A stretch of 64,000 bases of DNA, from NCBI GenBank assembly GCA_963774855.1, contig CAVZGT010000005.1:298714-362713 (forward strand). Direction: 5' to 3'. Of this stretch, positions 4,237-56,851 are shown piece by piece. The stretch's first letter is position 1, and the number at the start of each line of letters is the position of its first letter. Source of the DNA: an uncultured Acidobacteriota bacterium (GTDB taxonomy: Bacteria > Acidobacteriota > Vicinamibacteria > Vicinamibacterales > 2-12-FULL-66-21). The translations under genes and the position numbers were made by a program. The notes below the pieces were generated by a model that worked only from the letters and a program-made list of their open reading frames with translations, did not search any database and was not told the DNA's origin.

Positions 4237-4588
4237 TACCAAAAGAACCGACCACGATCGCCTCGAGCTGCTGCAGGGCACGCTGGACCTGCTGGTGCTC
4301 AGGACGCTACGCCTCGGACCGGCGCACGGGCACGCGATCGCGAAAGCGATCGAGCGGGGTTCGGATGATGTGCTGCAGGTGGAGCAAGGGTCGCTGTACC
4401 CGGCCCTGCACCGCCTGATCAAGCGAGGATGGATTACGTTCGAGGACGGCACGTCGGAGAACAACCGCCGCGCCAAGTTCTATCGCCTGACCGCCAAGGG
4501 CCGCAAACAACTCGAGATTGAAGCCGGCCGGTGGGACAAGCTGGCTCACGCCATCGCCCGTATCCTCCGCCCGGCAGCACAGGAGTGA
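4232..4588 (+). CDS. PadR family transcriptional regulator
   Basis: 118 aa with the PadR winged-helix signature: [56 protein letters not shown]. It lies directly upstream of a permease, the usual PadR-ADOP pairing. Confidence 0.9.
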
Positions 4589-17822: not shown

Positions 17823-20261
17823 CTATTCACTGCGCAGTGCAACAAGAGGATCGACTCGCGAGGCGCGCCGCGCCGGTATGTAGCTCGCGACGAGCGCCAC
17901 CGCAAGCATCACGGCGGACATTCCGGCGAACGCCATCGGGTCCAGGCGCCCGACACCGAAGAGCAGCGTCTGGATATAACGAGTGAGGGCCACGGCAGCC
18001 AGCGCTCCCACGACCACGCCAACCAGCGCCACCCGGGTGCCTTGCCAGACGAACATCCGGCGCACGGTCTTTGCCTCGGCGCCCAGGGCCATGCGTACGC
18101 CGATCTCCTGCGTCCGTTGCGTCACGCCGTACCAGAGCACGCCGTACAGGCCGACCGCACCAAGGACCAGCGCGAGCACGGCGGCAATGCTGACCATGAC
18201 CATCGTGAACCACAGACTGGCCATGGCCTTGGCGGCCAGAGCCTCCATCGTGAAGATCCGATACATCGGGGAGTTCGGAACCACCTCCCGAATGATGGCG
18301 CGAACCTCCGGGGCCAGTTGGTCGGCACGGGCCGACTTCATCACGTAGGCCGGCGACGTGGACGCACCCGGCAGGTAGACCATCGGCTCCGGAGACTTGC
18401 GGCGGAGGTCGTCCACCAGGATGTCTTCGACCACGCCGATGACGGTGAACCACGTATCGGCGCCGGCGGTGGCCGGTCGCACCTTTTGACCAATCGGCTC
18501 TTCGCCAGGGAACAACGTCCTGGCGGCGGTCTCGCTGATGATCACGTTGCGAGTTCCCAGCTCTTCCTCCATCCGCTCGAAATAGCGGCCGCTCCTGAGT
18601 GCGATTCCCATCGTCTGGAAATATGCGCCGCCGGCGGCGGCGTTCCGAACGAGAGGTGCCTCCGCTCCACTCGCCTGAATCCTGGGGGTTGTGACGTTCG
18701 CGCTGCCCGCGCCCTCGTCCAGCGGCAGCGTGGAGATGAATCCAACCGATTCGACGCCGGGCAGGGCCTTCAGGCGATCCATGAACACGTACTGAAACCG
18801 CGAGATCGATGCACGATCGGTCAGATCGGGGCGGCCCGCCGCGATCTGGAACGTGAAGATTCCTTTCGTGTCATATCCGGCGTCGACTTGGCTGAGCTGC
18901 CAGACGCTGCGCATGAGCAGCGCCGCGCCAACCAGCAGGACGAGAGCCGAGGCGGTTTGCACCGCTACGAGCGCATCGCGCGCAAGGCTTCTGCGGCCGA
19001 CGATGCCTCGTCCGGCCTGCTGGAGGCTGCCGAGCCGCGAGCCCGACAGGCGGAAAGCGGGCAGCAGGCCGAACGCGCACGCGGCCAGGACCGAGAGGCC
19101 CGCGGTAACGAGCAAGGCCGTACAATCGAGGTGCGCGGCGGCGAGCCCGGCAATGGGTGCGCCGGCAAAGCCACCCGCGACCGCATCCGGCGCCGCGCGG
19201 ACCAGGAGTGGGACCCCGGCCCACGCGATGACCGCGCCAACCGCGCCTCCGGCTGCCGCGAGCAGGAGCGCGTCGGTCACTTGCGGGCGCACCAGGTCGG
19301 CTCGTCCCGCACCGAGAGCCCGGCGCACTGACAGTTCGACGCGCCGGTTCTCCGCTCTGACCGTGAACAAATTCGCCACGTTGACACAGGCGACGAGGAA
19401 GACGATGCCGACCGTGCCGAGCAGAATCCAGAGTGCCGTCGAGATCCGGCCCACGAGTTGCTCGCGCAGCGGCTTCACCACCGGCCGGTGACGTTCCATG
19501 ATCCGCACGTACGGCGCGGGTCCGCCCAGCCGCTGCTGCACCTGACGCGCGATCGGTTCGAGCTGCGCGACCAGTGCTGCGCGGTCCGTTCCCGGCTTCA
19601 TACGCGCCACCATGCGCGGCCCGAATCCGCCCGGCGTGACCTGAGCGGCGCGAATCGCCAGCGGCACCCAGAACGCGACGCGCTCGTCGGGGAAGCGGAA
19701 CTCCGGCTTCATGATGCCGATCACCTCCCGGTTCTGGCCCGCGAAGAAGTAGCTCTTGCCGATCACCTTCTCATCGGAGTTGAACCAGTTCTGCCAAAGC
19801 CAATAGCTGATGACGACGACGCGACCGTCGTCGGTAGCGGCAGGCAACCGGCCACGGAGAGGCACCGCGCCAAGCGTCGTAAAGAATGAGGGAGTGGCCT
19901 GAGTGACGAAGAGCTGGTCGACCTGCCCTTCCGCGCGTGTCGTGGACGAACCGATGCCATAAATGCCGGCGTCTTCGATCCCGGGCACGCTCTCGCGGTA
20001 CGCGAAGTAGAGCTCGTCCGGAACGCCGAACTCCTCGGGCTGATCGGTTCCCGGAGCGGTCCCTCCAATATGAACGAGCCGATCCGCATTCGGGAACGGC
20101 AGCGGCTCGAGGAGCACCGCCTTGACGACGCTGAAGATGGAGGCGTTCGCGCCGATGGCGAGCGCGAGCGTCGCCACGACGGTCAGCGTGAAGCCCGGCG
20201 TGCGGCCAAGACTGCGCGCCGAGTGCCTGAAGTCCCTGACCCACGATTCCACTGCCTTCAC
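17823..20261 (-). CDS. ADOP-type MacB/FtsX-family permease
   Basis: 812 aa, GTG start. MKAVESWVRDFRHSARSLGRTPGFTLTVVATLALAIGANASIFSVVKAVLLEPLPF.. TQEIGVRMALGAE .. VDPLVALRSE. Confidence 0.9.
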   Translation of the reverse strand: MKAVESWVRDFRHSARSLGRTPGFTLTVVATLALAIGANASIFSVVKAVLLEPLPFPNADRLVHIGGTAPGTDQPEEFGVPDELYFAYRESVPGIEDAGIYGIGSSTTRAEGQVDQLFVTQATPSFFTTLGAVPLRGRLPAATDDGRVVVISYWLWQNWFNSDEKVIGKSYFFAGQNREVIGIMKPEFRFPDERVAFWVPLAIRAAQVTPGGFGPRMVARMKPGTDRAALVAQLEPIARQVQQRLGGPAPYVRIMERHRPVVKPLREQLVGRISTALWILLGTVGIVFLVACVNVANLFTVRAENRRVELSVRRALGAGRADLVRPQVTDALLLAAAGGAVGAVIAWAGVPLLVRAAPDAVAGGFAGAPIAGLAAAHLDCTALLVTAGLSVLAACAFGLLPAFRLSGSRLGSLQQAGRGIVGRRSLARDALVAVQTASALVLLVGAALLMRSVWQLSQVDAGYDTKGIFTFQIAAGRPDLTDRASISRFQYVFMDRLKALPGVESVGFISTLPLDEGAGSANVTTPRIQASGAEAPLVRNAAAGGAYFQTMGIALRSGRYFERMEEELGTRNVIISETAARTLFPGEEPIGQKVRPATAGADTWFTVIGVVEDILVDDLRRKSPEPMVYLPGASTSPAYVMKSARADQLAPEVRAIIREVVPNSPMYRIFTMEALAAKAMASLWFTMVMVSIAAVLALVLGAVGLYGVLWYGVTQRTQEIGVRMALGAEAKTVRRMFVWQGTRVALVGVVVGALAAVALTRYIQTLLFGVGRLDPMAFAGMSAVMLAVALVASYIPARRASRVDPLVALRSE

Positions 20262-20415: not shown

Positions 20416-23202
20416 CTATTCGTACTTCAGGGCGAGCATGGGATCGACGCGGACCGCGCGATATGCGGGCACGAACCCGGCTGCGAGAGCCACGAGCCCG
20501 AGCACGGCAATCGACGAGGCCAGCACGACAGGGTCGTGAAACTGCAGCCCGAACAGCAGGGTCTGTGCGGCACGCCCCACCAGGATGGCAAGCGCCAGGC
20601 CGATCGTGCCACCGGCCATCACGATCACGCCCACCTGACGGAGCACCATCCACCGCACGCCACCGCGCGTGGCGCCGAGCGCCATGCGCAGGCCGATCTC
20701 GGACGTGCGCTGCGCGACAGTGAAGGCGAGCAGCCCGTAGAGGCCGATGGCAGCCACGAGAGTCGCGAGCGTCGCGAAGGCGCCGGTCATCACGCTCATC
20801 AACCGTTGCGGCGTCGTCGCTCCACGCATCGCGTCGTCCATCGTCCGAAGCCCTTCGATCGGCAGGTTCTGGTCGAGCCGCCGCATCACCCCCCGGATCG
20901 CCATGATGGTCTGGCCGGCGTCGAGCGACGTCCGAACGTAGAAGGTCATGACGTTCGGCGTGTTGGTGCTCTGGCGGTGCGGGACGAAATACATCGGCGG
21001 CGCGGCGTCGCTGAGGTTGCTGTGCTTGAAGTCCCGCACCAGGCCGACAATCTCGACGTCGAGCGCCGGCGTTCCCCGAGACATCCGCTTGCCGGTCACA
21101 TCGCCCGAAAGGCCGAACTTCCTGGCAAACTGTTCGTTGACGATGGCGACCCTGGCCGCATTCTCCGAATCGGCAGCGGTGAACTCGCGGCCGGCAATCT
21201 GTGGAATTCCAAGTGTTCGAAAGTAGCCGGGACCGATTTCGTCGTACCGCGTGCCGCGGTCCGCGGCGCGTCCGGCATCGAAGCCCTCCACGAATACGTC
21301 CGTGACGCGGACGTCTCCCGAGAGCAGCGGCGTGGACGATGACGTGACGGCCGTCACACCGGGCAGCGCGGCCATCTCCTCCTCGAGACGATCGAACAGC
21401 GCCGCCGAGCGTGGACTGGTGTAGCCGTTGCGCTGGGGTGCGATCCCGAACATGACCATGCCATCGATCCTCAGTCCGGGATCGACACGGCTGATGTTGC
21501 CAAGGCTCTTCGTGAACAAACCTGCCAGAACGATGAGCACCATCGACAGCGCCACCTGCGCCATCGCGAGCGAGACGCGAAAGCGCGCCCCGGCGCGGCC
21601 TCCGGCCGGTTGCCCAGTCTGGGCTTTGAGCGCCGCGCGCACGTCCGGCCGTGCGGCGTGAAGCGAGGGGAGCAACCCGACCGCCACGCTCGCGCCAAGC
21701 GCCAACGCGCCCGTGATGATGAGCGTGGATGTGTCCAGCGGCAGGGCCAGCACCGACGCTTCGCCGCCGAGCGTCGCGCGAACCAGGTCCATCGTCCACT
21801 GCGCGACGAAGAGACTGGCCATCGCGGCGATCAACGCCAGCACCGAGGACTCGGTCAGGAGTTGAGCGATGAGACGCCCGCGAGTGGCCCCAAGAGACAA
21901 ACGCGTGGCCAGCTCCTTCGCGCGCGCGGCCGCGCGAGCAAGCAGGAGGTTCGCCACGTTGACACAGGCGATGAGCAGGACGAGCGTGGTGACGGCCAGC
22001 AGCAGGGTCAGCGGTACCCGAGCGTCCGTCGCGAAACGGCTCTGTCCGCGCGACCCGGGGTCGAGACGGATGCCCCTCGCTCTGAACTCCGCCATCATCG
22101 GATCGCTCATGCCCTCCTGGAGCGGCACCTCGACCTCGTTGGTGATGGCGCGATAGGGCACGTCAATCGCCGCGCGCGCCTGTTCCAGCGCGACGCCTGG
22201 CTTCAGACGGGCGAACAGGTAGACCCAATATCCGCGCCGGTTCTCAGGTGGGCTGCGCGGGTTGGGCGCCAGGCGCCAGCGCATCGTGATCGGCACGAAG
22301 ACGTCCGCCTTCAGCCCGACGGTCGTTCCGTCAAACCCCGGCGGCGCGACGCCGACGATGGCCATGGGGTGTCCGTTGACGGCGATCGTGTCGTCGAGGA
22401 TGTCCGCGCGCCCGCCCATGTGGCTCTGCCAGTAGGCGTGACTCAGCACGACGGCCTCGGGCCCGTCCACCGTGCGATCGTCGCTCGATCCCAGCAGGCG
22501 GCCGAGCGCGGGCCGCAGACCGAGCACGGGAAAGTAGCTGCCCGACACGAACAGGCCCTGGCTTTTCGTGGTCTGGTCGCGATAACCCAGATTGACGGCG
22601 AGGTCGCGGTGCGCGGCGATGCCGGTGAAGACCGTCTGGAGGCGCTCCAGGTCCCGGAACATGGGATAGCTGAACACCGCCGCGCATTCACCCATGCTGC
22701 CGCAGGACGTCGGTCCGGACCGCGCCCCGGGCGACACGAGATTCACCAGCCGGCGCGGCTCGGGAACCGGCAAGGGCTGGAGGAGCAGTTGGTTGAACAG
22801 GGAGAACATCGCCGTGTTGGCGCCGATGCCGAGCGCGAGCGTCAGCACGGCCACCGCGGTGAAGCCTGGCGCACGTCTCAACATGCGGAGGGCGTAACGG
22901 ATGTCGTGCCCCCGGTCGGTGAGGAACTCCATGCCCATCATGCGCCGCCTCCTCCGCTCGTCGATCGCCACACATTCGAGGCGCGAGCTCTCGACATCGC
23001 CGAAGCGGCGCAAGGTCAGCTCGCGGGCGCGCTCCGGAGATTCGCCGCGCTCGATCAGTTCGCGGATCCGCATGTCCAGGTGAAAGGACAATTCGGCCGC
23101 CACGTCACGGCCGGGATCGAGCCCGAAGAGCCCACGGAAACGCCTCCACCGCGCCGCCACGTCAGCCTCCGCCGCTCGAGGGTTGTGCGTCCAATGCGGC
23201 AA
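20416..23202 (-). CDS. ADOP-type MacB/FtsX-family permease
   Basis: 928 aa. AARWRRFRGLFGLDPGRDVAAELSFHLDMRIRELIERGESPERARELTLRRFGD .. GFTAVAVLTLALGIGANTAMFSLFNQ .. TSEIGLRMALGAT .. VDPMLALKYE. ATG 23202 overlaps padR by 41 nt. GTG 23160, just after the padR stop, is an equally plausible start. Confidence 0.9.
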   Translation of the reverse strand: MPHWTHNPRAAEADVAARWRRFRGLFGLDPGRDVAAELSFHLDMRIRELIERGESPERARELTLRRFGDVESSRLECVAIDERRRRRMMGMEFLTDRGHDIRYALRMLRRAPGFTAVAVLTLALGIGANTAMFSLFNQLLLQPLPVPEPRRLVNLVSPGARSGPTSCGSMGECAAVFSYPMFRDLERLQTVFTGIAAHRDLAVNLGYRDQTTKSQGLFVSGSYFPVLGLRPALGRLLGSSDDRTVDGPEAVVLSHAYWQSHMGGRADILDDTIAVNGHPMAIVGVAPPGFDGTTVGLKADVFVPITMRWRLAPNPRSPPENRRGYWVYLFARLKPGVALEQARAAIDVPYRAITNEVEVPLQEGMSDPMMAEFRARGIRLDPGSRGQSRFATDARVPLTLLLAVTTLVLLIACVNVANLLLARAAARAKELATRLSLGATRGRLIAQLLTESSVLALIAAMASLFVAQWTMDLVRATLGGEASVLALPLDTSTLIITGALALGASVAVGLLPSLHAARPDVRAALKAQTGQPAGGRAGARFRVSLAMAQVALSMVLIVLAGLFTKSLGNISRVDPGLRIDGMVMFGIAPQRNGYTSPRSAALFDRLEEEMAALPGVTAVTSSSTPLLSGDVRVTDVFVEGFDAGRAADRGTRYDEIGPGYFRTLGIPQIAGREFTAADSENAARVAIVNEQFARKFGLSGDVTGKRMSRGTPALDVEIVGLVRDFKHSNLSDAAPPMYFVPHRQSTNTPNVMTFYVRTSLDAGQTIMAIRGVMRRLDQNLPIEGLRTMDDAMRGATTPQRLMSVMTGAFATLATLVAAIGLYGLLAFTVAQRTSEIGLRMALGATRGGVRWMVLRQVGVIVMAGGTIGLALAILVGRAAQTLLFGLQFHDPVVLASSIAVLGLVALAAGFVPAYRAVRVDPMLALKYE

Positions 23203-23512
23203 AGACGGCCGCCGCGTAGCGGCGCCAGTTCGCTGTCTCCACGTTCAACTGCGTGCGTCCCCGCCTGGTGAGCGAATAGAACTTCGCCTGGCGATTGTTC
23301 TCCGAGACGCCCCAGCTGGCATCGATCCAGCCGCGTTCCTCGAGCCGGTGGAGGGCCGGATACAACGTCCCTTCGCCGACGGCCAGGACGTCGGACGTGG
23401 CCTGCTCGATCCACCGCGCGATGGCATAGCCATGCGCCGGGCCCCAGCTCAAGGCTCTCAGGATCAGTAAGTCGAACGTGCCTCGCAGAATCTCTGGTGG
23501 CGGCTGCGGCAT
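23162..23512 (-). CDS. PadR family transcriptional regulator
   Basis: 116 aa. [56 protein letters not shown]. Upstream lies a possible TTGCGT-17-TATCCT promoter. Confidence 0.9.
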   Translation of the reverse strand: MPQPPPEILRGTFDLLILRALSWGPAHGYAIARWIEQATSDVLAVGEGTLYPALHRLEERGWIDASWGVSENNRQAKFYSLTRRGRTQLNVETANWRRYAAAVFAALDAQPSSGGG

Positions 23513-37399: not shown

Positions 37400-39871
37400 T
37401 TGACCGCCGAAAAACGGAGAGCTCGTCTCGACGCATTCGTGCAGGATGTCCGGTACGCCTTGCGGACGCTGCACAGTACCCCAGCTTCGCCCTCGCGGCG
37501 ATCATCACCCTCGGGTTGGGCATTGGCGTCAACACCGCTGTTTTCAGCGTGGTGAACGCCATCGTCCTGCGGCCCCTGCCTGTCAGGGACGGGGACCGTC
37601 TCGTCGTGATCGCGAGCCGGCAAACCTCCAGCCGGACCCTCCGCGGTGTTTCGTTCACCGATCTCCAGGATTACCGCCCGGCCACGATCGACGTGTTCGA
37701 GGACATCGCTGGTTACAGTGTCGGGTTCCTCGGCCTTGCCTCGCCCGGTGGCAAACCGGCACGCGTCCTCGCGACGTGGGTGACGGGCCACTACTTCCCG
37801 TTGCTCGACGTTCGGCCGGCTCTTGGACGGATGATCCGGGCCGACGAGGGGGCGCCCGGCCGAGTCGACGCGGTCGTAGTCCTTGGATACTCGACCTGGC
37901 AGCGCAGGTTCGCGGGCGATCCATCGGTGATCGGCCGAACCGTCATGGTGAACGGCCGCCCCTGCACGATCGTCGGCGTGGCACCTCCCGATTTCTCCGG
38001 GACGTTCGCGTTCTCTGAATCGGAGTTGTATTTGCCTTTGAACTGGCGCAGCGGCGCCGGTTTCGACGACCGGCAGGCTCGCGGCCTGCATGCCATCGCG
38101 AGGCTGCGGCCAGGTGTCACCATCGACAAGGCCCAGGCGGTGATGAACGTCCTCGCTCAGCGCCTCTCGCGACAGTACCCGGACTCGAACGCAAACCTGG
38201 GAATCAGGGTCCTGCCGGAACGCCTGGCTCGTCCCGAAGAAGATCAGTTTCGAACCAATGCGCTCGGCGCTGCGGTCATGATCACGATGGTCATCCTCGT
38301 CATGATCGTGGCCGCGGTGAATGTGACGAACCTGTTGCTGGCACGAGCAGCAAGCCGGCGCCGCGAGCTCGCGATCCGCTCCGCGCTCGGCGCCGGACGC
38401 GGCCGCCTCGTTCGACAGATGGTGACCGAGAGTCTGGTGCTCGCCATGCTTGGCGGAGGCGCCGGTGTCCTTCTGGGAACATGGGCGGTGCGTGCGCTCG
38501 CGGCGGTGCGCCTGCCGGGTGACCTCCCGGTGCGATTCGACTTCCGATTGGATGGCCGCGTTCTGGCGTACTCCGTGACTGTAGCGGTGATCACGGGGCT
38601 GCTCGTCGGCCTCGCCTCGGCGGTTCGCGTGTCGAGGGCAAATCCAGACGGCATGCTTCGCGGATCGCGGCAGGGCCCATCGGGCACGCATCGTCACGCC
38701 GTCCGCGGCTTCCTCGTGGTGGCCCAGATCTGCTTGTTGCTTCGTGCTTCTCTCGATGGCTGGATTGTTCGTGCGGAGCCTTGCCGAAGCCGAGCGCACG
38801 GACCTGGGCTTCCAACCGGAGGGAGTGCTCAACGTCCACATGGATGTCGGGCAACTTGACTACTCGGACACGCAAGGGCGGGCTTTTTTCGACGACGTCG
38901 AACGCCGGACACGGTCCATTCCAGGCGTCCACAACGTGAGCTTCGCGTTTACGATCCCGATGGGCTACATCCGGGTGAGCACCGCCGTCGAGGCCGAGGG
39001 CCAGCCGGGCGACCGCGACAGCCGCGTGTCCGCGGGACAGAACATCGTCAGTGCCGGATACTTCCAGACCATGGGGATTCAGATCGTTCGCGGGCGGAGC
39101 TTCGAGGACGCCGATGACGAGCAGTCGCGCCGGGTGGCGGTCGTCAACCAGCGCTTCGCGGACGTGCTGTGGCCCGGTCAGGACCCGATCGGCCGGCGCT
39201 TCAAATCGCCCGGGGCGGACGGGTACTTGATCGAAGTGGTGGGGGTTGCGAAGACCGGCAAGTATCAATTCCTCTTCGAAGATCCGCAGCCCTACTTCTT
39301 CGTCCCCATTGCACAGGAGTACACGGGACTTCGGGTGCTCCAGGTACGAGCGTCGATACCGGCCGACGCGCTCGCGCCGGCTATCGAACGAGCGATTAGA
39401 GACCTCGAGCCTGACTTGCCGCTGTACAACGTACAGACCATGACGCAGGCGCTCGGGAGCGGCCTCGGCTTCTTCCCCGTGCGCGTGGGTGCGATCGCCG
39501 TCGCGGCGTTTGGCGTGCTTGCGTTCGCGCTGGCGATCGTTGGCCTGTACGGTGTCACTTCGTACCTTGCCGGTCAGCGCACGCACGAAATCGGCGTGCG
39601 TCTCGCCGTCGGCGCCACGCCTCGGCACATTGTCCGGCTCGTCCTCGGGGATGGGTCGAAACTCGTGATGCTCGGTGTCGCTGCAGGAATGGTCATGACG
39701 TTGGTGTGTTCCCGAGTCGTTGGCCGGTTCCTGTTCGGCGTGTCGGCATACGACCCTCTCACCCTCGTGAGCGTGGTGCCGGTGCTCGGCGGTGTGGGCC
39801 TGATCGCGTGCGCCATTCCCGCCTGGCGCGCGGCCCGCGCGGACCCGACGATCGCCCTCCGTTCCGAGTGA
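37400..39871 (+). pseudogene. ADOP-type MacB/FtsX-family permease, two frame breaks (~37480, ~38742)
   Basis: TTG 37400 gives (M)TAEKRRARLDAFVQDVRYALRTL. A break follows at the C4 run 37479-37482. Then PSFALAAIITLGLGIGVNTAVFSVVNAIVLRPLPV.. (ORF 37291..38859) runs up to GFLVVAQICLLL. A second break follows, then VLLSMAGLFVRSLAEAERTDLGF .. THEIGVRLAVGAT .. ADPTIALRSE (ORF 38744..39871). Confidence 0.8.
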
Positions 39872-39910: not shown

Positions 39911-40516
39911 TCACTGCAACCCGGCGAGATACTCGGCGACCGCTCTGATCTCCTCGTCGGTGAGACGCCCGGCCACGGCGCGCATGACGCGCGCCCGGTC
40001 GTTGCTGCGCGCGCCGCTCTTGAAGTCTGCGAGCTGCTGCACGATGTAGGTTTGCGGCTGGCCTGACAGGCGCGGATAGCGCTGGTAGCCCGCCCCGTTG
40101 GGCAAGTGACAGCCGACACATCCCGGCACACCGGTGGCGCGGTTGCCTTCCTCGTACAGCACCTTGCCCCGGGCCGCCAGCTCCGGATTCTCGACCGCGC
40201 CCCGCGCCGGCGCCTGGCTGGCGAAATGCGCTGCCATGCCGGGAATCTGCTGCTTCTTCAACGCCCCGAGCAACGGGGCCATGACGGCGCTCTTGCGCTT
40301 GCCGGTCTTGTACTCGCGCAGCTGCTTGTCCAGGTACGCGGCGTGCTGCCCGTCCAGCTTGGGGAAGGCCGGTGCCCCCGGCGCCGCGGCCGTGCCGCCG
40401 CCATGACACGGGACGCACGCGGAGACGGTGATCGCCCCCGCTTCCTGCGCCCAGACCGGGGTCGCGGTCCCGAGCAGGCAGATGCCCATCACCACGAACG
40501 TCGACAATCTCCGCAC
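39911..40516 (-). CDS. dihaem c-type cytochrome (cytochrome c4-like)
   Basis: GTG 40516 behind GGAGG gives (M)RRLSTFVVMGICLLGTATPVWAQ. Two CxxCH motifs (CVPCH, CVGCH), each followed by a Met-containing segment. The two halves are homologous (FPKLDGQHAAYLDKQLREYKTGKR / YPRLSGQPQTYIVQQLADFKSGAR). Confidence 0.85.
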   Translation of the reverse strand: MRRLSTFVVMGICLLGTATPVWAQEAGAITVSACVPCHGGGTAAAPGAPAFPKLDGQHAAYLDKQLREYKTGKRKSAVMAPLLGALKKQQIPGMAAHFASQAPARGAVENPELAARGKVLYEEGNRATGVPGCVGCHLPNGAGYQRYPRLSGQPQTYIVQQLADFKSGARSNDRARVMRAVAGRLTDEEIRAVAEYLAGLQ

Positions 40517-40544
40517 GGTGATGCCTCCAAGGAACTGACGCTGA

Positions 40545-40661
40545 CAACTCCCAAAAAACCAACACCCAACTCCCAAAGTGTCTGGGGGTGAATCGCGGCG
40601 GATTGCACCCGGCAGTACGAGGCATGCGCCTTGGGAGTTGGTAGTTGGACGTTGGGAATTG
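40545..40661. repeat. CAACTCCCAA-type long imperfect hairpin element, copy 1
   Basis: Left arm CAACTCCCAAAAAACCAACACCCAACTCCCAAAG. A ~51-nt centre. Right arm CTTGGGAGTTGGTAGTTGGACGTTGGGAATTG. It sits between the MtrB/PioB-like stop and the cytochrome c4 start. Its left arm is near-identical to 56773-56806. Confidence 0.8.
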
Positions 40662-40778
40662 CACGGCCGAGTTCCTTTCAGTTCGGTGCTGCCGCGGCGG
40701 ACGCTCGGCCCCTAGTAAACAATGCCACCTGCCGAAGCGGAGCCTCGAGAGTCTCGGCGGCGCAGCCTCGCTAGATTG

Positions 40779-43518
40779 TCACAGCTCGTACCGGAACAAC
40801 GCCCCGAACAGGTGCACCTTGTAATCCCGCGGACCGAAGTCGAGATACGCCCCGTTGTTGGCCGGCATCGGATTCACGCTGACACCGTCGTAGTGCCAGT
40901 CGCGGATCTTGGCGTCCTCGAACCGGTAGAGCACGCGCAGGGACAGCCGCTTGTAGAGCGGCACCAGGGCGTTGGCTTCGAGGAGATTCTGGACGAAGAC
41001 GAGATCCTCCCACCCGTCGCCGGCGAGCGTGACCTGCACGGCATTCATTCCCAGCGCCGCGGGGTTGTACCCGTACCTGATTCTCGTACGGCCACTCGAA
41101 TAGGTGTATCCGACGTCCGTCAGGACCTTGCCCACCTCGTAGTGAAAGCCCAGGCCCGTGACGTGGTTGTGATCCTCTTGAGAAACGTCCCAGGCCCGGC
41201 TGATTGGAAAGAGCGGACTGACCGCCGAGGCCGCCCCGCAAACCGATCTGAAGTTCGCCGCCAGCACCTGCTGGGTCGCGACGACCACCGCCCCGGGCGG
41301 TGGAACTCCGGTCGCGTTCGTCTGAACCGAGCCGTCGCTCAAGAAGTAGTAGAAGTTCCCGATCACGCAGGCATTCGGCTGGATGCCGGCCTGATGTTGT
41401 GCGCCCTCCTGAAACGAGTAGAACCCGTACGCGCTCGTGGTCGGTGATGGCTGCCAGTTGAGCTCCACCGACGGGGACGTCTGCCTGTGATGGTCGTTGC
41501 GTCCGTACTCCGACGCTGGATACTCCACGTCTCTCACCTGCAGGCCGACGCTGGCGTCCAGCGCCGGGCCGATGCCGTAGTTGTACCGGGCATTGAAGAC
41601 GTTCTGGTTCCGGTCGGCCACGTCGAATCTGCGGAATTGCTCGACGTTGCGCAGCCACGTGGCGATGTTCGTCGTGTTAGCGGTCGGCACCGGTCCGAGC
41701 GAGATGCTGTAGAACTCGGCCAGATTGGCGGACAGGAAGTCGCTCCCGCGACGACGGCCGTACTCGTACGAAAGCCGGAGGGTGCCCGTCTCGGAATCGC
41801 GGTTGACGTAGCCGAGCCGAATCTTGTCTTCCCACGTCTCGTCGCGTTCGCGGTGCCGGCGGCGGAAATTCTCGCGCTCGTAGGCCGCTTCCAGGCTGTT
41901 GGTCCGGTTGACGCGGTAGTCGGCCGAGACGACCGAGCTCAGTTGGCGATACTCGTAGGGCACGCTGCGGATGGGAACGTCCCCCAGGCTCGGCGCCAGC
42001 CCGAGGGCCTGGGTCGCGGCGTAGTCACAGCGGGTGCCGTTGTAGCCGGTGTTCAGCGTGCCCACCGGGTTGTTGCCGACGGTCAGGTTCGGCGTCACGA
42101 AGGACCCTCCCGAGCCGTTGTTCAGCAGACGTCCCCACTGACCCGTCAGCGGATTGCACGCCAGATACTGCGTACTGTTGTCGGTGTCGAAGTAGCGGAC
42201 CTTGCCCTTCACGGCCAGCGCTCGCGCCGGGATTCAGGATGATGCCGACGTCGACGAGCGTCGTGTCGATGCGCGCATCGGCCGACAGCCTGCTCAGCGA
42301 GGCGGTCGTGTTCCACACATTGGCCGTCGAGACCCCGTTGATGGTGCCGCCCGTCAACGGCTCGATCGCGGACGGAATCAGGTTGTCGTTCTGCTGCGAA
42401 CGGGCGAACGACACGACGCCGGTTATCCGGCTCTTGAGAAACTTCGGGAGCTTCCTGGCGAACTCCCCCTTCACGTTGTAGTAGTCGTTGCTCGGGTACA
42501 GGTCGAACTGCCCTTGCGTAAAGGTCGTCGCCGGCACGCCCGCGATGGTGTTCGTCGTGATGAACAACGGGTTCTGGAACATCATCGTGTCGATGTCGTT
42601 CTCGAAGAACGACGCCGCGGCCTGCAGGCTGAGGTTCGTCACCGCGTTGGCGAACTGAAGCCCTGCCAGCACGTCCTGCGTGTTGTAGTCGATCGATTCC
42701 GGGATCTCGACGTTGCCGCCACCGCCGCCGCCGCCAAAGACGGCGCCGAAGGGCCGGCTGCCTTCTCGACGCTCGCGGGTATAGCTCGCGAAGGCTTTCC
42801 AGTTCGCAGGCAACGTGAGGTCGAACCGTGCGCGGCCCTTCTTCGCGGGTCAGCTCGACGTCGCCGTCCGTCGCGTTCGAGATGGCCAGGAGCATGTTCG
42901 CCTGGGTCGTATTCGCATCGGTCGTGCCTCCCGGGCGAAGTCCTCTCAACGTGAGCACGTCGCTGCCCGCCCCGTCCCACAGCGACCTGTAGGTCGTCGT
43001 GAACACATGGGGTGTTTCGCTGAAAGAGCCGCGCACCCTCCACGTGTTGTATCGGCCTACGTCCACGCCGTAGTACTGGTCGTCCTGGGCCACGCCACCG
43101 CCGACCGCGTCGAAGTGAAAGGCGCTTTGCGGTTTCTCGAACATCACGGTGAAGTTGTTCAGGTACGCGCCGCTGTCGAGGTCCTTGTATTCGCGGAACT
43201 TGGCGCTTCCCTGTCGCCGTTCAGGCCGATGGCGCCGAACTCGACCGTCGCCCGGTAGAGCAGGCCGCTCGCCGTCTTCGAGGGCTCCTTCACGAGCGGC
43301 GCGGGGACCGTGAGCAGTCCCGTGGGGCTGCGCGAATTCTCGGCGATGCCCAACCCCTCAGGGTCCCGTTCGACGATCGAGCTGATGGCGCGCGGATTCA
43401 AGGCGTTGCCGGGCGTGGCCTCCTGCCCGTCGCCAGGACCGGCATGCGCGAGGGAGGCCGTCAACCGCAGCACCCCGATACCGAGGGTGATGACTGAGGC
43501 ATACGAACGGATCTTCAT
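40779..43518 (-). pseudogene. MtrB/PioB-like decahaem-associated outer-membrane beta-barrel protein, three frame breaks (~43213, ~42848, ~42229)
   Basis: Four ORF pieces join into about 913 aa. Signal MKIRSYASVITLGIGVLRLTASLAHA. ..EFGAIGLNGD | GSAKFREYKDLDSGAYLNNFTVMFEKPQSAFHFDAVGG..GDVELT | AKKGRARFDLTLPANWKAFASYTRERREG..TLVDVGIILNP | ARALAVKGKVRYFDTDNSTQY .. HLFGALFRYEL. The composition is Y/G/N/D-rich and beta-strand-like. It starts 40 nt after a decahaem cytochrome gene. The family assignment rests on synteny and composition, not on a search. Confidence 0.65.
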
Positions 43519-43558
43519 CAAGGTCTCCCGCAGAGTTGTCCCGCGGCGCGGGTGTGGA

Positions 43559-44533
43559 TCAGCGCTGGAAGCGTGCCCCAGCCGGATGATTGCTGCCATG
43601 GATCTGCGAGTGGCAGTTCTGGCAGGTGCGCCCGATCACGCGTGGACTCTGTCCTCCACCCGACAGCGCCCCGGCAGCCGACTGCCCATCTCGATAGAAC
43701 GTGCCGTTATGGCCTATCGACAGGTTGTGGCATTGCTGACAAAGGTAGGGACGCGCCCCCACGAGCAACTTGTCATGGTTGGAACCATGAGGCTGATGAC
43801 AGTTGAGGCAACTCTCGCGGACAGGCGCGTGTTCCCAGAGGAACGGCCCCCGCTTTTCGGCGTGGCAGGTGTAGCAGACGTCGTTGACGGAATCCGCGTT
43901 CAGGAGGGAACGGGCCGACGAGCCATGCGGGTTGTGGCAGTCGACGCAGGACACCTTGCCTTCGGGCAGCGGCATGTGCGAGCGCCTGCGGAACTCGGCG
44001 CGTTGCTGCTGGTGGCACTGGAAGCAGGTCTCAGAGACGCTTTGCCGGGCCAATAGGCTGTTGGCCGACAGCTTCTGCATGGGATTGTGGCAATCGGCGC
44101 AGCCGAGATTGCTCTTCGCGTGCGTCGATCCCGGCCAGTGCAGGCGATTGCCACCCTCGTGGCAGGTCAGGCACTGGGCATTCTGCACGTCCACAGGCGT
44201 ACCCCAACGCCTGGTGAACCCGATCAGCGCGGTCTTGTCGAGGGCGTTCTTGGCGTGATCCGAGCCCGGTCCATGGCAGGCTTCGCACCCCTGCCGCTGC
44301 CGGTCGTCCTTGGGATTCAGGCGGAAGACCTTGGCGTGCAAGGTCTCTCCGAAATGCTTGTTCTCCTGGCCGTGGCATTCGATGCACCGCGCCTCGCCGA
44401 TGTATTCGGCTGGTTTCGCGGCAGGCTTCACGGGCGTGGCCTGCCCCCAGCACATCATCAGCACCGCGATGCCTATCCCGATCGTTCGCGTTCGCCACAC
44501 TCGGGGCGTAAGCTCGATCGACCGCATCCGCAT
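43559..44533 (-). CDS. periplasmic decahaem c-type cytochrome, MtrA/DmsE/PioA/MtoA-like
   Basis: 324 aa with signal/TM TIGIGIAVLMMCWGQA. Exactly ten CxxCH motifs: CIECH, CEACH, CLTCH, CADCH, CFQCH, CVDCH, CYTCH, CLNCH, CQQCH, CQNCH. Size and haem count match the MtrA family. Confidence 0.9.
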   Translation of the reverse strand: MRMRSIELTPRVWRTRTIGIGIAVLMMCWGQATPVKPAAKPAEYIGEARCIECHGQENKHFGETLHAKVFRLNPKDDRQRQGCEACHGPGSDHAKNALDKTALIGFTRRWGTPVDVQNAQCLTCHEGGNRLHWPGSTHAKSNLGCADCHNPMQKLSANSLLARQSVSETCFQCHQQQRAEFRRRSHMPLPEGKVSCVDCHNPHGSSARSLLNADSVNDVCYTCHAEKRGPFLWEHAPVRESCLNCHQPHGSNHDKLLVGARPYLCQQCHNLSIGHNGTFYRDGQSAAGALSGGGQSPRVIGRTCQNCHSQIHGSNHPAGARFQR

Positions 44534-44686
44534 CCGCGCTCTCTTCCTCTACCCCCTACCCCTCTTTTTCTACCCCCTTCTTGATCTCGACCAATCGTCG
44601 CGGTGACCGTTCGTTGTTTCGGGCACTTAGTTCCCGGACACGCAGAGAGAGTCAACGCATGTGGTTCGTACGATCGACCGTCGACA

Positions 44687-44715
44687 ATGTAGGCAGTTTG
44701 ATCGAGAGTGTCAAG
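44687..44715 (-). promoter_or_regulatory. sigma70-like promoter of the decahaem cytochrome operon
   Basis: Minus strand TTGACA (44715-44710), 17 nt, TACATT (44692-44687), in a lower-GC spacer. This predicts a ~145-nt leader. Confidence 0.5.
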
Positions 44716-44759: not shown

Positions 44760-47258
44760 TCACGTCCGCCGAAGCGCGATGGCCGGATCGACGTGCATCG
44801 CGCGGAGGGCGGGAATCACCGACGCGGTGAGACCCGCAATCGCGAGCACGGCACATCCGCTGACAAACGTCAGCGGATCGGTTGCCGTCACGCCGAACAA
44901 CTGCGCTTCGATGTACCGCGTGCCCAGGAGCGCACCCGCGAGACCGAGTGCCAGGCCAATCCCGAGCAGTCGAAATCCCTGCCCCAACAGCAGGGTGACA
45001 ATCGACGCCGGTTGCGCACCCATGGCGAGGCGAATCCCGATTTCCCGTGTCCGCTGGGTCGCGGCGTGCGCCATCACGCCGTAGAGGCCAAACACCGCGA
45101 GGATCAACGCGACGGCGCCAAACAGGCCGACGAGTGTGGCCATCATCCGTTGCGTGCTCAGCGTTCGGTCGAGGACATCGCTGAGCAGCTGCGGACGCTC
45201 GACGGCAAGCTGGCTGTCGGCCTGCCGCACGGCTTCGCGAATCGCCGGCACGAGCGACATGGCGTGGCTCGCCGCGCGCACGTGCAACGCGACGCCCGAT
45301 TCGTAGTTCTGCGCCAGCAGCAAGTAATAGGCCGGCGGCCTCTCGCGCTCCAGCGTGGTGGTGTAGACCGTGTCGGGGACGACGCCGACGACGACCTGCA
45401 GCAGGCTGCGCTCGTCTCGCAGCGTTCGGCCGATCGGATCCTCGTGCGGCCAGAGCTGGTCCGCCAGGGACTTGGTCACGATTGTCACGCGCGGCGTCGT
45501 GGGACCGTCCGACGAATTGAAAAGGCGCCCATGGAGGATCGGGATGTTCATCGTTTCGAAGTAGCGATGGCTGACAACGTTGGCGCGAACGCCCAGGGCA
45601 TTGCTGTTGTCCTTCTCGAGGGGGCGGCCATCCGTGCTGACGGCGGTTGACCGCGCGCCGCCACTGAGAACCGTCATGCGCGCAGCGGCAGCAGCGGCAA
45701 CGCCCGGCAGGGCCTCGACACGGGAAAGAATCTGGTCGTACACCGCCAACCCGGCATCGGCTCCCCGTGACCCTCCTTCAAAGTAGCCGCGCGGTTCGAG
45801 ATTGAGGGAAGCGACCAGGGTCTGATCCACCTGGTAACCCAGTTCCACCGAGTACGCGTTCTCGAGCGTGCGGAGGAACAGGCCGGCTCCCACGAGGAGC
45901 ACCAGACTGACCGCGACCTGAAGGATGACGAAGGCTCCGCGCAGCCGGGTTGCGCGGGCGCCGGTCACGACGCTGCCTCCCTCCGCGCGAAGCGCCGTGG
46001 TCGTATTCCGTCGAAGCGCCTGAAGGACCGGAGCGAGGCCGAAGAGCAGCCCGCTGCCAACGCCGGCAACGAGCGTGAAGCCGAGGACGCGCGCGTTCAC
46101 GGACAGGTCAACGGCCTCCGGGATGACGAACGTGTGGAGCAGCGGCGTCGCGACGCGAACGACGAGCAGCGCCCCGATCGAGCCAAGGATCCCGAGGAGC
46201 ACGGATTCGGTGGTCCATTGACGGATGAGCCTTGCCCGGCTGGCGCCGATCGCGATCCGCACGGCGACCTCGCGCTCGCGCGACACGGACCGCGCGAGCA
46301 GCAGGCTCGCGACATTCACGCAGGCGACCAGGAGCACCATCAACACGGCCCCCGCGAGCTGCCGCAGCATCGGGCGCGTCGCGACGCGGAGGCTCCGGCC
46401 CTCGCCGAGCGGCGCCACGCTGAACCGCCGGGTGCTGTTCGAATCCGGGTACGCGGCCCGGAGGCGGCCGGCAACGACTTCGGCGCGTGCCGCCACCTGC
46501 TCGATACCGGCGCCGCTCGGCAACCGGCCCACCAGACTCAACCCTCTCGAACGGCGCAGGTCGAAGATCCGCGAATGACCGCGCGAGCGCCGCACGGCCG
46601 CCGACGGCGGATCGACCTCGGGCTGCAGCGCCGTCGGGACCCACGCGTCCGGCGCAACGCCGACGAGCGGGCCGACGAATCCCGGCGGAGCGACGCCGAT
46701 GAGCACATACGGGTTGCCGTTGAGGCGAATCGTCCGGCCGATCGACGACTGGTCGGCGTTGAACACCCGCTGCCAGAGCGCATGCGAGATGACCGCCACG
46801 CGAACCGGGGCCCCGAGTCGATCGTCGTCGGGCGTCAACGCGCGGCCGAATCGGGTTTTGATCCCAAGAACCTCGAAGTAGTTGCCGCTCACGAGCTGCC
46901 CGGCCAGAGGCTCCGGGTGACCGTTCGCGTCCATCGTGAGTGACACCGGCGTGTAGGCCGCCAGCGACGCGAACGTCCCACTGTCGCGCAAGTCGAAATA
47001 GTCCGGATAGGACGAGTTCGAGTAGGGGTTGTTGCCGGACGACGTGTAGACGTCAACGAGGCTGTCGGGATCGGCGACAAGGGCGTCGCGGAGAAGGACC
47101 GCGTCCACGGCGCTGAAGATGACCGCGTTCGCGCCTATGCCAAGCGCGAGAGTCGCGATGACCGTTACCGCGAAGGTCGGCGCGCGCAGCAGTGCCCGGA
47201 GCGCATACCGGACATCACGATCGAGATCGGACAGCATGACGACTCCCTTGTGAGACAC
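44760..47258 (-). CDS. ADOP-type MacB/FtsX-family permease
   Basis: 832 aa. MSHKGVVMLSDLDRDVRYALRALLRAPTFAVTVIATLALGIGANAVIFSAVDAVLL .. TREIGIRLAMGAQ .. VDPAIALRRT. Confidence 0.9.
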   Translation of the reverse strand: MSHKGVVMLSDLDRDVRYALRALLRAPTFAVTVIATLALGIGANAVIFSAVDAVLLRDALVADPDSLVDVYTSSGNNPYSNSSYPDYFDLRDSGTFASLAAYTPVSLTMDANGHPEPLAGQLVSGNYFEVLGIKTRFGRALTPDDDRLGAPVRVAVISHALWQRVFNADQSSIGRTIRLNGNPYVLIGVAPPGFVGPLVGVAPDAWVPTALQPEVDPPSAAVRRSRGHSRIFDLRRSRGLSLVGRLPSGAGIEQVAARAEVVAGRLRAAYPDSNSTRRFSVAPLGEGRSLRVATRPMLRQLAGAVLMVLLVACVNVASLLLARSVSREREVAVRIAIGASRARLIRQWTTESVLLGILGSIGALLVVRVATPLLHTFVIPEAVDLSVNARVLGFTLVAGVGSGLLFGLAPVLQALRRNTTTALRAEGGSVVTGARATRLRGAFVILQVAVSLVLLVGAGLFLRTLENAYSVELGYQVDQTLVASLNLEPRGYFEGGSRGADAGLAVYDQILSRVEALPGVAAAAAARMTVLSGGARSTAVSTDGRPLEKDNSNALGVRANVVSHRYFETMNIPILHGRLFNSSDGPTTPRVTIVTKSLADQLWPHEDPIGRTLRDERSLLQVVVGVVPDTVYTTTLERERPPAYYLLLAQNYESGVALHVRAASHAMSLVPAIREAVRQADSQLAVERPQLLSDVLDRTLSTQRMMATLVGLFGAVALILAVFGLYGVMAHAATQRTREIGIRLAMGAQPASIVTLLLGQGFRLLGIGLALGLAGALLGTRYIEAQLFGVTATDPLTFVSGCAVLAIAGLTASVIPALRAMHVDPAIALRRT

Positions 47259-56772: not shown

Positions 56773-56851
56773 CAACTCCCAAAAGGCCCAACTCCCAACT
56801 CCCAAACTGAGTCTCTTCGAAGAGATTTCTTTGGGAGTTGGAGTTGTTGAG
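56773..56851. repeat. CAACTCCCAA-type hairpin element, copy 2
   Basis: CAACTCCCAAAAGGCCCAACTCCCAACTCCCAAA, a loop containing the perfect palindrome TCTCTTCGAAGAGA, then TTTGGGAGTTGGAGTTGTTGAG. Confidence 0.8.

Follow-up and report, generated by a model that had tools for sequence, protein, structure and literature searches.

A likely MtrC-less MtrAB/MtoAB-type porin-cytochrome conduit with a cytochrome c4 partner in an uncultured Vicinamibacterales-like soil acidobacterium

In this report, we focus on three genes that lie head to tail, between positions 39911 and 44715, on the minus strand of a 64,000-nucleotide (nt) stretch of contig CAVZGT010000005.1, which was analysed at its full length and which we call the window. 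They encode a decahaem c-type cytochrome, a large outer-membrane barrel and a cytochrome c4 (Table 1). We consider it likely that they form an operon for an MtrAB/MtoAB-type porin-cytochrome conduit that is devoid of MtrC and accompanied by a soluble periplasmic cytochrome c4, in an uncultured, Vicinamibacterales-like soil acidobacterium, and that the barrel gene, broken in three places as assembled, is intact in the organism. MtrAB, MtoAB and PioAB constitute the best understood electron route across the Gram-negative outer membrane, and the two core proteins described here pass the family tests for these systems, apart from a marginal score on one profile, TIGR03509. A preliminary description of the locus had listed three minus-strand genes behind a sigma-70-like site, and all its descriptive items are present in the sequence.

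Table 1. Coordinates of the features discussed in the text (aa, amino acids).
Feature	Position	Strand	Basis
Gene for a dihaem cytochrome c4 of 201 aa with a signal peptide; begins with GTG, range includes the stop codon	39911..40516	-	matches to solved c4 structures, two CxxCH
Structured intergenic insertion of ~220 nt, repetitive extragenic palindromic (REP)-like hairpin on CCAACTCCCAA / TTGGGAGTTGGG, between barrel and c4 genes	40528..40777	-	
mtrB/mtoB/pioB-like gene for a predicted 26-strand outer-membrane barrel, 911 aa once repaired, four frame pieces as assembled	40779..43518	-	PF11854, predicted fold
mtrA/mtoA-like gene for a decahaem c-type cytochrome of 324 aa with a signal peptide, predicted to be periplasmic; range includes the stop codon	43559..44533	-	family profile, MtrA match, haem motifs
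Candidate promoter of sigma-70-like type (TTGACA-17-TACATT), located 153 nt upstream from the ATG of the cytochrome gene	44686..44714	-	10/12 matches
ADOP permease paralogues	1-2067, 4782-7244, 17832-20237, 20425-22935, 37480-39862, 44763-47258		

The first gene is what the preliminary description had claimed, that of a 324-aa, predicted periplasmic cytochrome with ten haem motifs. Its open reading frame (ORF; 44533..43559) begins with an N-terminal signal-peptide-like segment, contains exactly ten CxxCH motifs and ends with a TGA codon. The protein scores 260.9 bits on the NCBIfam profile TIGR03508 (DmsE family decahaem c-type cytochrome; cutoff 192.2, positions 1-257 of a 258-position model), and its residues 46-324 match MtrA of the solved Mtr complex (6r2q_A) with an E-value of 4.4e-64, so that the likeness to MtrA/DmsE/PioA/MtoA, for which a profile search had been proposed, is borne out. 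The ten CxxCH motifs are all in register with those of MtrA in the alignment. Over 82 sequences (80 homologues, MtrA and the window sequence), nine of these motifs are invariant and one cysteine is conserved at 99%, and ten further histidines are conserved at 89-100%, which is enough for the bis-His ligation of ten haems. From such profile and alignment matches, the decahaem protein is classed as a member of the DmsE/MtrA family. A multihaem protein of the nitrite- or sulfite-reductase type is ruled out by the TIGR03508 score, the MtrA match and the motif register. The ratio of non-synonymous to synonymous substitution rates (dN/dS) of the gene is 0.16 against the closest public locus (L073), which belongs to a metagenome-assembled genome (MAG) labelled uncultured Acidobacteriota MFD06742.bin.2.107 and is 95.8% identical at the nucleotide level over 3971 nt. 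The G+C content at third codon positions (GC3) is 0.80 in the cytochrome gene, as against 0.86-0.90 in the barrel pieces and the c4 gene, and a codon-usage frame model trained on the long ORFs of the window called the gene non-coding; both features may come from its Cys/His-rich composition alone, or from a foreign origin.

The second gene starts at an ATG at 43518, 40 nt past the cytochrome stop as had been stated, and its own stop codon lies at 40781-40779. Once repaired, it encodes 911 aa and ends in ...LFGALFRYEL, which agrees with the ~913-aa protein and the C-terminus first given. Its assignment as an MtrB/PioB-type barrel had been based on synteny and composition only, and the profile search and structure prediction that were then recommended have since strengthened it. 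The repaired protein matches the Pfam family PF11854 (MtrB_PioB) over essentially the full model, with 309.7 bits for a cutoff of 23 (E-value 5.9e-92; aligned to positions 6-635 of the 635 in the profile). The AlphaFold2 prediction, for which 55 sequences were used, has 26 long strands (predicted local distance difference test, pLDDT, 78.4; predicted template modelling score, pTM, 0.75), and its top Foldseek match in the PDB is MtrB (6r2q_B), with an E-value of 9.1e-38 and a template modelling (TM) score of 0.88 normalised to the target, while the next matches are 22-strand TonB receptors (E-value ~1e-11, TM ~0.42). The sequence similarity to MtrB is low (phmmer E-value 7.5e-08 over 170 residues; 17% identity in the structural alignment). 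One score counts against the assignment: on the stricter NCBIfam profile TIGR03509 the repaired protein reaches 232.5 bits (E-value 1e-68), below the cutoff of 240.05. Intact relatives (P0121, P0124 and L073) score 230.6-234.4 bits on this profile, so that falling just short of the cutoff is a trait of the clade and does not come from the frame repair. By its predicted fold, then, this large protein belongs with the 26-strand barrels of the MtrB/PioB family; the possibilities that it does not belong to MtrB/PioB, or that it is not a barrel, are ruled out by the PF11854 match and the 26-strand model.

Two further features of the barrel lie outside the core of the Pfam model. The model is of very low confidence over an N-terminal extension, residues 27-85 (PGNALNP ... 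DPEGLGI.E.SR.PTGLL), that is conserved and in which several positions are invariant. Four cysteines in predicted loops, Cys457, Cys500, Cys720 and Cys763, are invariant in 55 homologues, which suggests two disulfides; they are numbered here on a 915-aa version of the protein repaired by eye, whereas the 911-aa version was repaired against the closest relative.

The third gene had been described as coding for a dihaem cytochrome c4-like protein, and this description can be sharpened. The likely true start is the GTG at 40516, which has a GGAGG 7 nt upstream and is preferred over a 221-aa ORF beginning with TTG. The protein contains two CxxCH motifs and two Cytochrom_C domains (Pfam), and it matches the solved cytochrome c4 6q2u_A over its full length (E-value 1.5e-37, residues 26-200 against 6-180), with further matches to the solved c4 structures 1etp_A (E-value 1.5e-31), 1h1o_A (E-value 7.4e-23) and 8uf3_A. 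Judged by these matches, it is a bona fide cytochrome c4. Its dN/dS against L073 is 0.13.

The host also fits the preliminary description, which had called the genome 'Acidobacteria-like'. The closest public loci belong to Acidobacteriota/Vicinamibacterales MAGs, with up to 95.8% nucleotide identity, and the window contains seven paralogues of the ADOP (acidobacterial MacB-like) permease, an 830-aa protein of duplicated MacB/FtsX type. ADOP permeases are a hallmark of the Acidobacteriota, and two of these genes flank the operon, one on each side (37480-39862 and 44763-47258). The G+C content is even across the 64 kb.

Homologues of the cytochrome number in the thousands and are commonly named 'DmsE family decaheme c-type cytochrome', whereas full-length homologues of the barrel with at least 60% identity, mostly of ~910-915 aa, number about 85 among the matches listed; one of them has the NCBI name 'MtrB/PioB family outer membrane beta-barrel protein [Vicinamibacterales bacterium]'. 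The relatives compared here are the best 80 of 118 from contigs taken as one genome per species, among which Sideroxydans lithotrophicus and Rhodopseudomonas palustris are not represented. The 13 closest loci all come from Acidobacteriota MAGs (one labelled Vicinamibacterales and one Solibacteraceae), and they are followed by Burkholderiales, Rhodocyclales and Chromatiales, and then by Opitutaceae. The cytochrome and barrel genes are adjacent in 82 of 82 loci. The gene immediately after the barrel encodes a c4 homologue in every one of the 13 Acidobacteriota loci and in the majority of the Burkholderiales and Rhodocyclales loci; the Opitutaceae and Gallionella loci have none there. No MtrC-type or other multihaem gene was found within ~6 kb in the 12 acidobacterial loci scanned. 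Within the 64-kb window, no credible c-type cytochrome gene was found beyond the decahaem and c4 genes, the two other CxxCH-bearing stretches having a GC3 of ~0.5. A search of the flanking genes for a hidden partner conserved across loci found none, and these flanks vary (ADOP genes here, tannase and argininosuccinate synthase in L001).

In a neighbour-joining tree, the acidobacterial cytochromes form a single clade nested among beta- and gammaproteobacterial homologues; this was the only tree method used, the root is Shewanella baltica MtrA taken from the PDB alignment, and homologues from MAGs labelled Gallionella and Nitrosomonadales stand in for the MtoA and PioA references. The window cytochrome is 63-75% identical to its betaproteobacterial homologues, as compared with 41% to MtrA. 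Acidobacterial contigs that reach 1.7 Mb in length and originate from many samples bear the trio as well, and they form one clade. These data are consistent with a self-contained three-gene module that was probably exchanged between Proteobacteria and Acidobacteriota long ago and then inherited vertically in this lineage. As to the c4 gene, most of the betaproteobacterial loci (L014-L042, Burkholderiales and Rhodocyclales) have a tandem pair of c4-like dihaem genes, which lie ~100-1200 nt past the barrel and are 48-56% and 27-33% identical, respectively, to the window c4; only the former of the two was retained in the acidobacterial clade. One Nitrosomonadales locus (L081) contains two decahaem genes.

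The barrel gene deserves separate attention, as it is not in one frame in the assembly. The preliminary description had counted three frame breaks, and these are indeed present: with respect to L073, there are 2 extra nt at 43203-43202, 1 at 42845 and 1 at 42232, which split the gene into four frame pieces that are otherwise free of in-frame stops. A tblastn search of the window with an intact 911-aa homologue (L001) gives a single collinear alignment that runs through four frames, with switches at ~43208, ~42841 and ~42230 and no in-frame stop, and the removal of the four bases restores a stop-free ORF of 911 codons. The repaired gene has a dN/dS of 0.23 against L073, its successive segments giving 0.37, 0.15, 0.14 and 0.30; the values of 0.14-0.30 downstream of the first break mean that the protein was under selection there until very recently. 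The barrel of L073 is in one frame, as it is in 9 of the 13 acidobacterial genome loci, including all four whose assemblies are not MFD contig_-named (L004, L006, L008 and L013). Among these loci, broken versions are confined to assemblies with MFD contig_ names (L002, L003, L010 and L012), and the positions of the breaks differ every time. Furthermore, at least 10 other probable frame breaks affect unrelated genes of the window, at about one per 5 kb, and a codon-usage frame hidden Markov model (HMM) detects many direct same-strand frame switches across it. The ADOP permease at 37480-39862 is split at ~38740, four of its paralogues being intact, an FG-GAP repeat crosses a frame junction at ~47944 and a TPR repeat crosses another at ~62181; other probable breaks lie at ~8830, 15192, 35820, 36052, 49669, 62437 and 62852. 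The genes concerned encode TPR-repeat, carboxypeptidase-regulatory-domain, ADOP permease and FG-GAP repeat proteins, a Ser/Thr-kinase-like TPR protein whose kinase part was judged by eye and, likewise by eye, an anti-sigma/FecR-like protein.

The three breaks are thus most likely long-read consensus errors in a gene that would be intact in the organism, since breaks occur window-wide, the relatives are intact and the removal of 4 nt gives a clean ORF under purifying selection. Two observations weigh against this: no long homopolymer, of the kind expected from classic long-read errors, was found at the three indel sites, so that the argument rests on the window-wide pattern of breaks and on the comparison with relatives, and three breaks in 2.7 kb exceed the window average. 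Both would fit a barrel gene truly inactivated by three indels, in which case the operon would be a decaying remnant whose cytochromes are non-functional or repurposed. The inactivation would have to be very recent, since the 911 repaired codons contain no in-frame stop or other lesion, and it would leave aside the breaks in unrelated genes, the similar assemblies that are broken at other sites, and the intact gene in nine acidobacterial loci, including the 95.8%-identical L073. We therefore regard the dead gene that the preliminary description had envisaged as very improbable. The provenance of the operon can be questioned in a similar way, as the cluster could be a mis-binned or chimeric proteobacterial fragment. 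The high identity of its cytochrome to betaproteobacterial homologues, the nesting of the acidobacterial clade among them and a GC3 slightly under that of the neighbouring genes all point in this direction, but the operon lies between two of the seven ADOP genes in a window of even G+C, and the same trio recurs in one clade on long acidobacterial contigs from many samples. Such a pattern is in keeping with a cluster that was gained horizontally long ago and has descended vertically since, rather than with contamination, which we consider extremely improbable. As for the intact acidobacterial operon that we favour, its apparent decay is most likely part of a consensus-error pattern that runs across the assembly, and this carries a lesson about data quality: pseudogene calls anywhere in the window need to be checked at the level of the reads.

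The closest parallel among described systems is offered by MtoAB. In the MtoAB(-MtoD-CymA) cluster of Sideroxydans lithotrophicus ES-1 and in betaproteobacterial MtoAB, the decahaem cytochrome is likewise short (~317-324 aa) and free of the extension that PioA carries at its N-terminus. These clusters also have an enlarged MtrB/PioB barrel directly after the cytochrome, no MtrC, and a small class-I c-type cytochrome beside the pair (PMC3274759, PMC8805035). It is in Burkholderiales and Rhodocyclales that the nearest non-acidobacterial homologues are found, many of them with a c4 after the barrel. The differences are that the cluster described here carries a dihaem c4 instead of the monohaem MtoD, that no inner-membrane cytochrome of the CymA/MtoC type is found in the cluster or in the 64-kb window, that the barrel is longer still (911 aa) and that the host is acidobacterial. 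PioABC shows the same succession of decahaem cytochrome, barrel and small soluble carrier of high-potential type, and it serves in the uptake of electrons from Fe(II) (PMC10654088). Here, however, the carrier is a c4 and not the high-potential iron-sulfur protein (HiPIP) PioC, a comparison that covers the gene after the barrel, no search for a HiPIP elsewhere in the genome having been made, and the cytochrome is without the ~200-aa N-terminal extension of PioA (PMC3274759); no phototrophy genes were seen in the window. With a c4 in the place of HiPIP or MtoD, and without CymA, the cluster is neither pioABC nor mtoAB-mtoD-cymA in the strict sense.

Compared with Shewanella MtrCAB (6R2Q), the cytochrome shows 41% identity with S. 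baltica MtrA in a stretch of 271 residues and has its ten haem motifs in register, and the modelled barrel superposes on MtrB with its 26 strands. The barrel, however, is ~215 aa longer than MtrB, with long loops and the conserved N-terminal extension, and there is no surface cytochrome of the MtrC/OmcA type. The periplasmic partner is a c4, whereas in Shewanella this role is played by FccA/CctA. Another Mtr conduit within the Acidobacteriota is the MtrCAB 'Group 5' of Acidobacteriia/Bryobacterales (Baker et al. 2022), which is also devoid of a nearby inner-membrane quinone oxidoreductase; it has MtrC and a periplasmic tetrahaem cytochrome after mtrB, instead of the dihaem c4 without MtrC found here, in a lineage that is related to Vicinamibacterales MAGs (PMC8805035). 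Given that MtrC is absent, the cluster is not an MtrCAB module.

By analogy with the solved Shewanella Mtr complex, the decahaem protein would be exported, matured and inserted into the 26-strand barrel, where its chain of haems would form an insulated wire across the outer membrane. The c4 would then act as a soluble periplasmic shuttle between the periplasmic end of this wire and inner-membrane respiratory complexes encoded elsewhere, and if electrons flow inward, it would hand them to a terminal oxidase. We lean modestly towards such a net inward flow, through the oxidation of extracellular Fe(II) or of another external reductant. It is mildly favoured because there is no MtrC, because the layout parallels those of MtoAB and PioABC, and because the partner is a classical c4. 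The c4 cytochromes are typically high-potential and donate to cbb3/aa3 oxidases, and one of the structures matched by the third protein, 1h1o, is the c4 that belongs to the chain oxidising Fe(II) in Acidithiobacillus ferrooxidans. MtoAB and PioAB layouts are known to occur without MtrC (PMC3274759, PMC8805035).

A number of points weigh against this direction, and they are in large part those that would support the opposite one, in which MtrAB without MtrC exports respiratory electrons to Fe(III) in soluble or chelated form, to Mn(IV), to humics or to redox shuttles, with a PdsA-like dihaem protein shuttling them from an inner-membrane quinol dehydrogenase encoded elsewhere. Indeed, the cytochrome belongs to the MtrA family, and MtoA itself is about equally related to PioA and MtrA and partly restores the reduction of ferrihydrite in a Shewanella mtrA mutant (PMC3274759). 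Neither MtoA nor PioA forms a function-specific clade, published trees do not separate the oxidising from the reducing MtrA/B homologues, and MtrCAB is able to run either way (PMC8805035); phylogeny was thus rejected as a criterion of direction. PdsA, a dihaem periplasmic shuttle that serves a reductive Mtr pathway (PMC8805035), is the top NCBIfam match of the c4 protein (NF049874), metagenomic surveys take the Mtr genes of Acidobacteriota as markers of iron reduction (PMC9671151), and no inner-membrane partner (CymA/NapC-type, bc1 or oxidase) was found in the 64-kb window. The direction of electron flow is, in the end, not readable from sequence. Export is nevertheless what we judge unlikely, as there is no extracellular cytochrome of the MtrC/OmcA type in the window or in the 12 related loci, and as the PdsA match is far under its cutoff (53.1 bits for 330) whereas the matches to classical c4 are strong and full-length, in proteins that are usually donors to oxidases. 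The lean of the preliminary description towards an oxidising (Pio/Mto) role is therefore reasonable as regards the c4 partner and the missing MtrC, and has to be held with caution, since the published trees do not split oxidisers from reducers and PdsA is reductive.

The regions around the three genes contain two further elements. The site TTGACA-17-TACATT, claimed at first sight as a promoter, is present with 10 of 12 matches and is unique in the 5.5 kb between 39500 and 45000, where shuffled sequences would give 0.4. It is kept in L073 with an 18-nt spacer and partly in L004, and it is not found in the other acidobacterial relatives, so that it makes a weak claim for the clade as a whole. 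Four of the relatives without the site (L009, L008, L003 and L005) have in common a conserved motif, CTGGCATG(C/T)CTGATGC, which lies ~120 nt upstream of where the cytochrome gene begins and is compatible with the GG-N10-GC spacing typical of sigma-54 promoters. The promoter type seems to have been swapped within the acidobacterial clade. The second element is the insertion between the barrel and c4 genes, a long imperfect hairpin that ends in a T run and has a minimum free energy of -116.7 kcal/mol (z -3.63). The corresponding gap is only ~30 nt in L073, while L002 and L005 have gaps of 200-250 nt at the same position. A second hairpin with the CCAACTCCCAA / TTGGGAGTTGGG motif is found in another intergenic region, at 56776-56850, and the motif has six occurrences where 0.18 are expected. 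An Rfam scan of the whole window gave no match, so that the insert is not a described RNA family; from its sequence it looks like a palindromic element of the REP or miniature inverted-repeat transposable element (MITE) type, and it may serve in transcript processing or attenuation, or be a selfish repeat.

The ADOP gene upstream of the operon (44760-47258) shares only its last 49 codons, at 98% identity, with L073 (1-5718), and the remainder of the gene is absent from 5.5 kb of L073 flank, which implies a rearrangement or insertion breakpoint within the gene in one of the two genomes. Two small ORFs (4247-4585 and 23165-23494) sit just upstream of two other ADOP genes and may be their regulators.

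The mechanism is not a new one: it is a well-known kind of conduit with a modest variation in its accessory gene, the c4. Homologues of PioA/B are already described as 'widely found in Proteobacteria and Acidobacteria' (PMC10654088), MtrCAB has been reported in five Acidobacteriia (PMC8805035) and MtrABC in Acidobacteriota MAGs (PMC9671151), and the NCBI pipeline already names such homologues automatically. In our literature search, we found no paper linking Vicinamibacter-type lineages to MtoA and none describing the mtoAB-c4 trio as such.

Soil Acidobacteriota of the Vicinamibacterales type are generally seen as aerobic heterotrophs. We tentatively put forward, as a possible if doubtful extension of the inward reading, that they use an MtoAB-c4 conduit, acquired anciently and kept vertically, to draw electrons from Fe(II) or other reduced solids outside the cell, the c4 passing them directly on to a terminal oxidase without any step at the quinone level. 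If this were true, they would constitute a guild of iron oxidisers that is widespread in soils and has gone unrecognised. To our knowledge, no cultured member of the clade has yet been assayed for extracellular redox cycling. In any case, the conservation of the conduit, under purifying selection, in a clade of abundant uncultured soil Acidobacteriota makes these bacteria candidates for the cycling of iron, or for other extracellular redox cycling, in soils.

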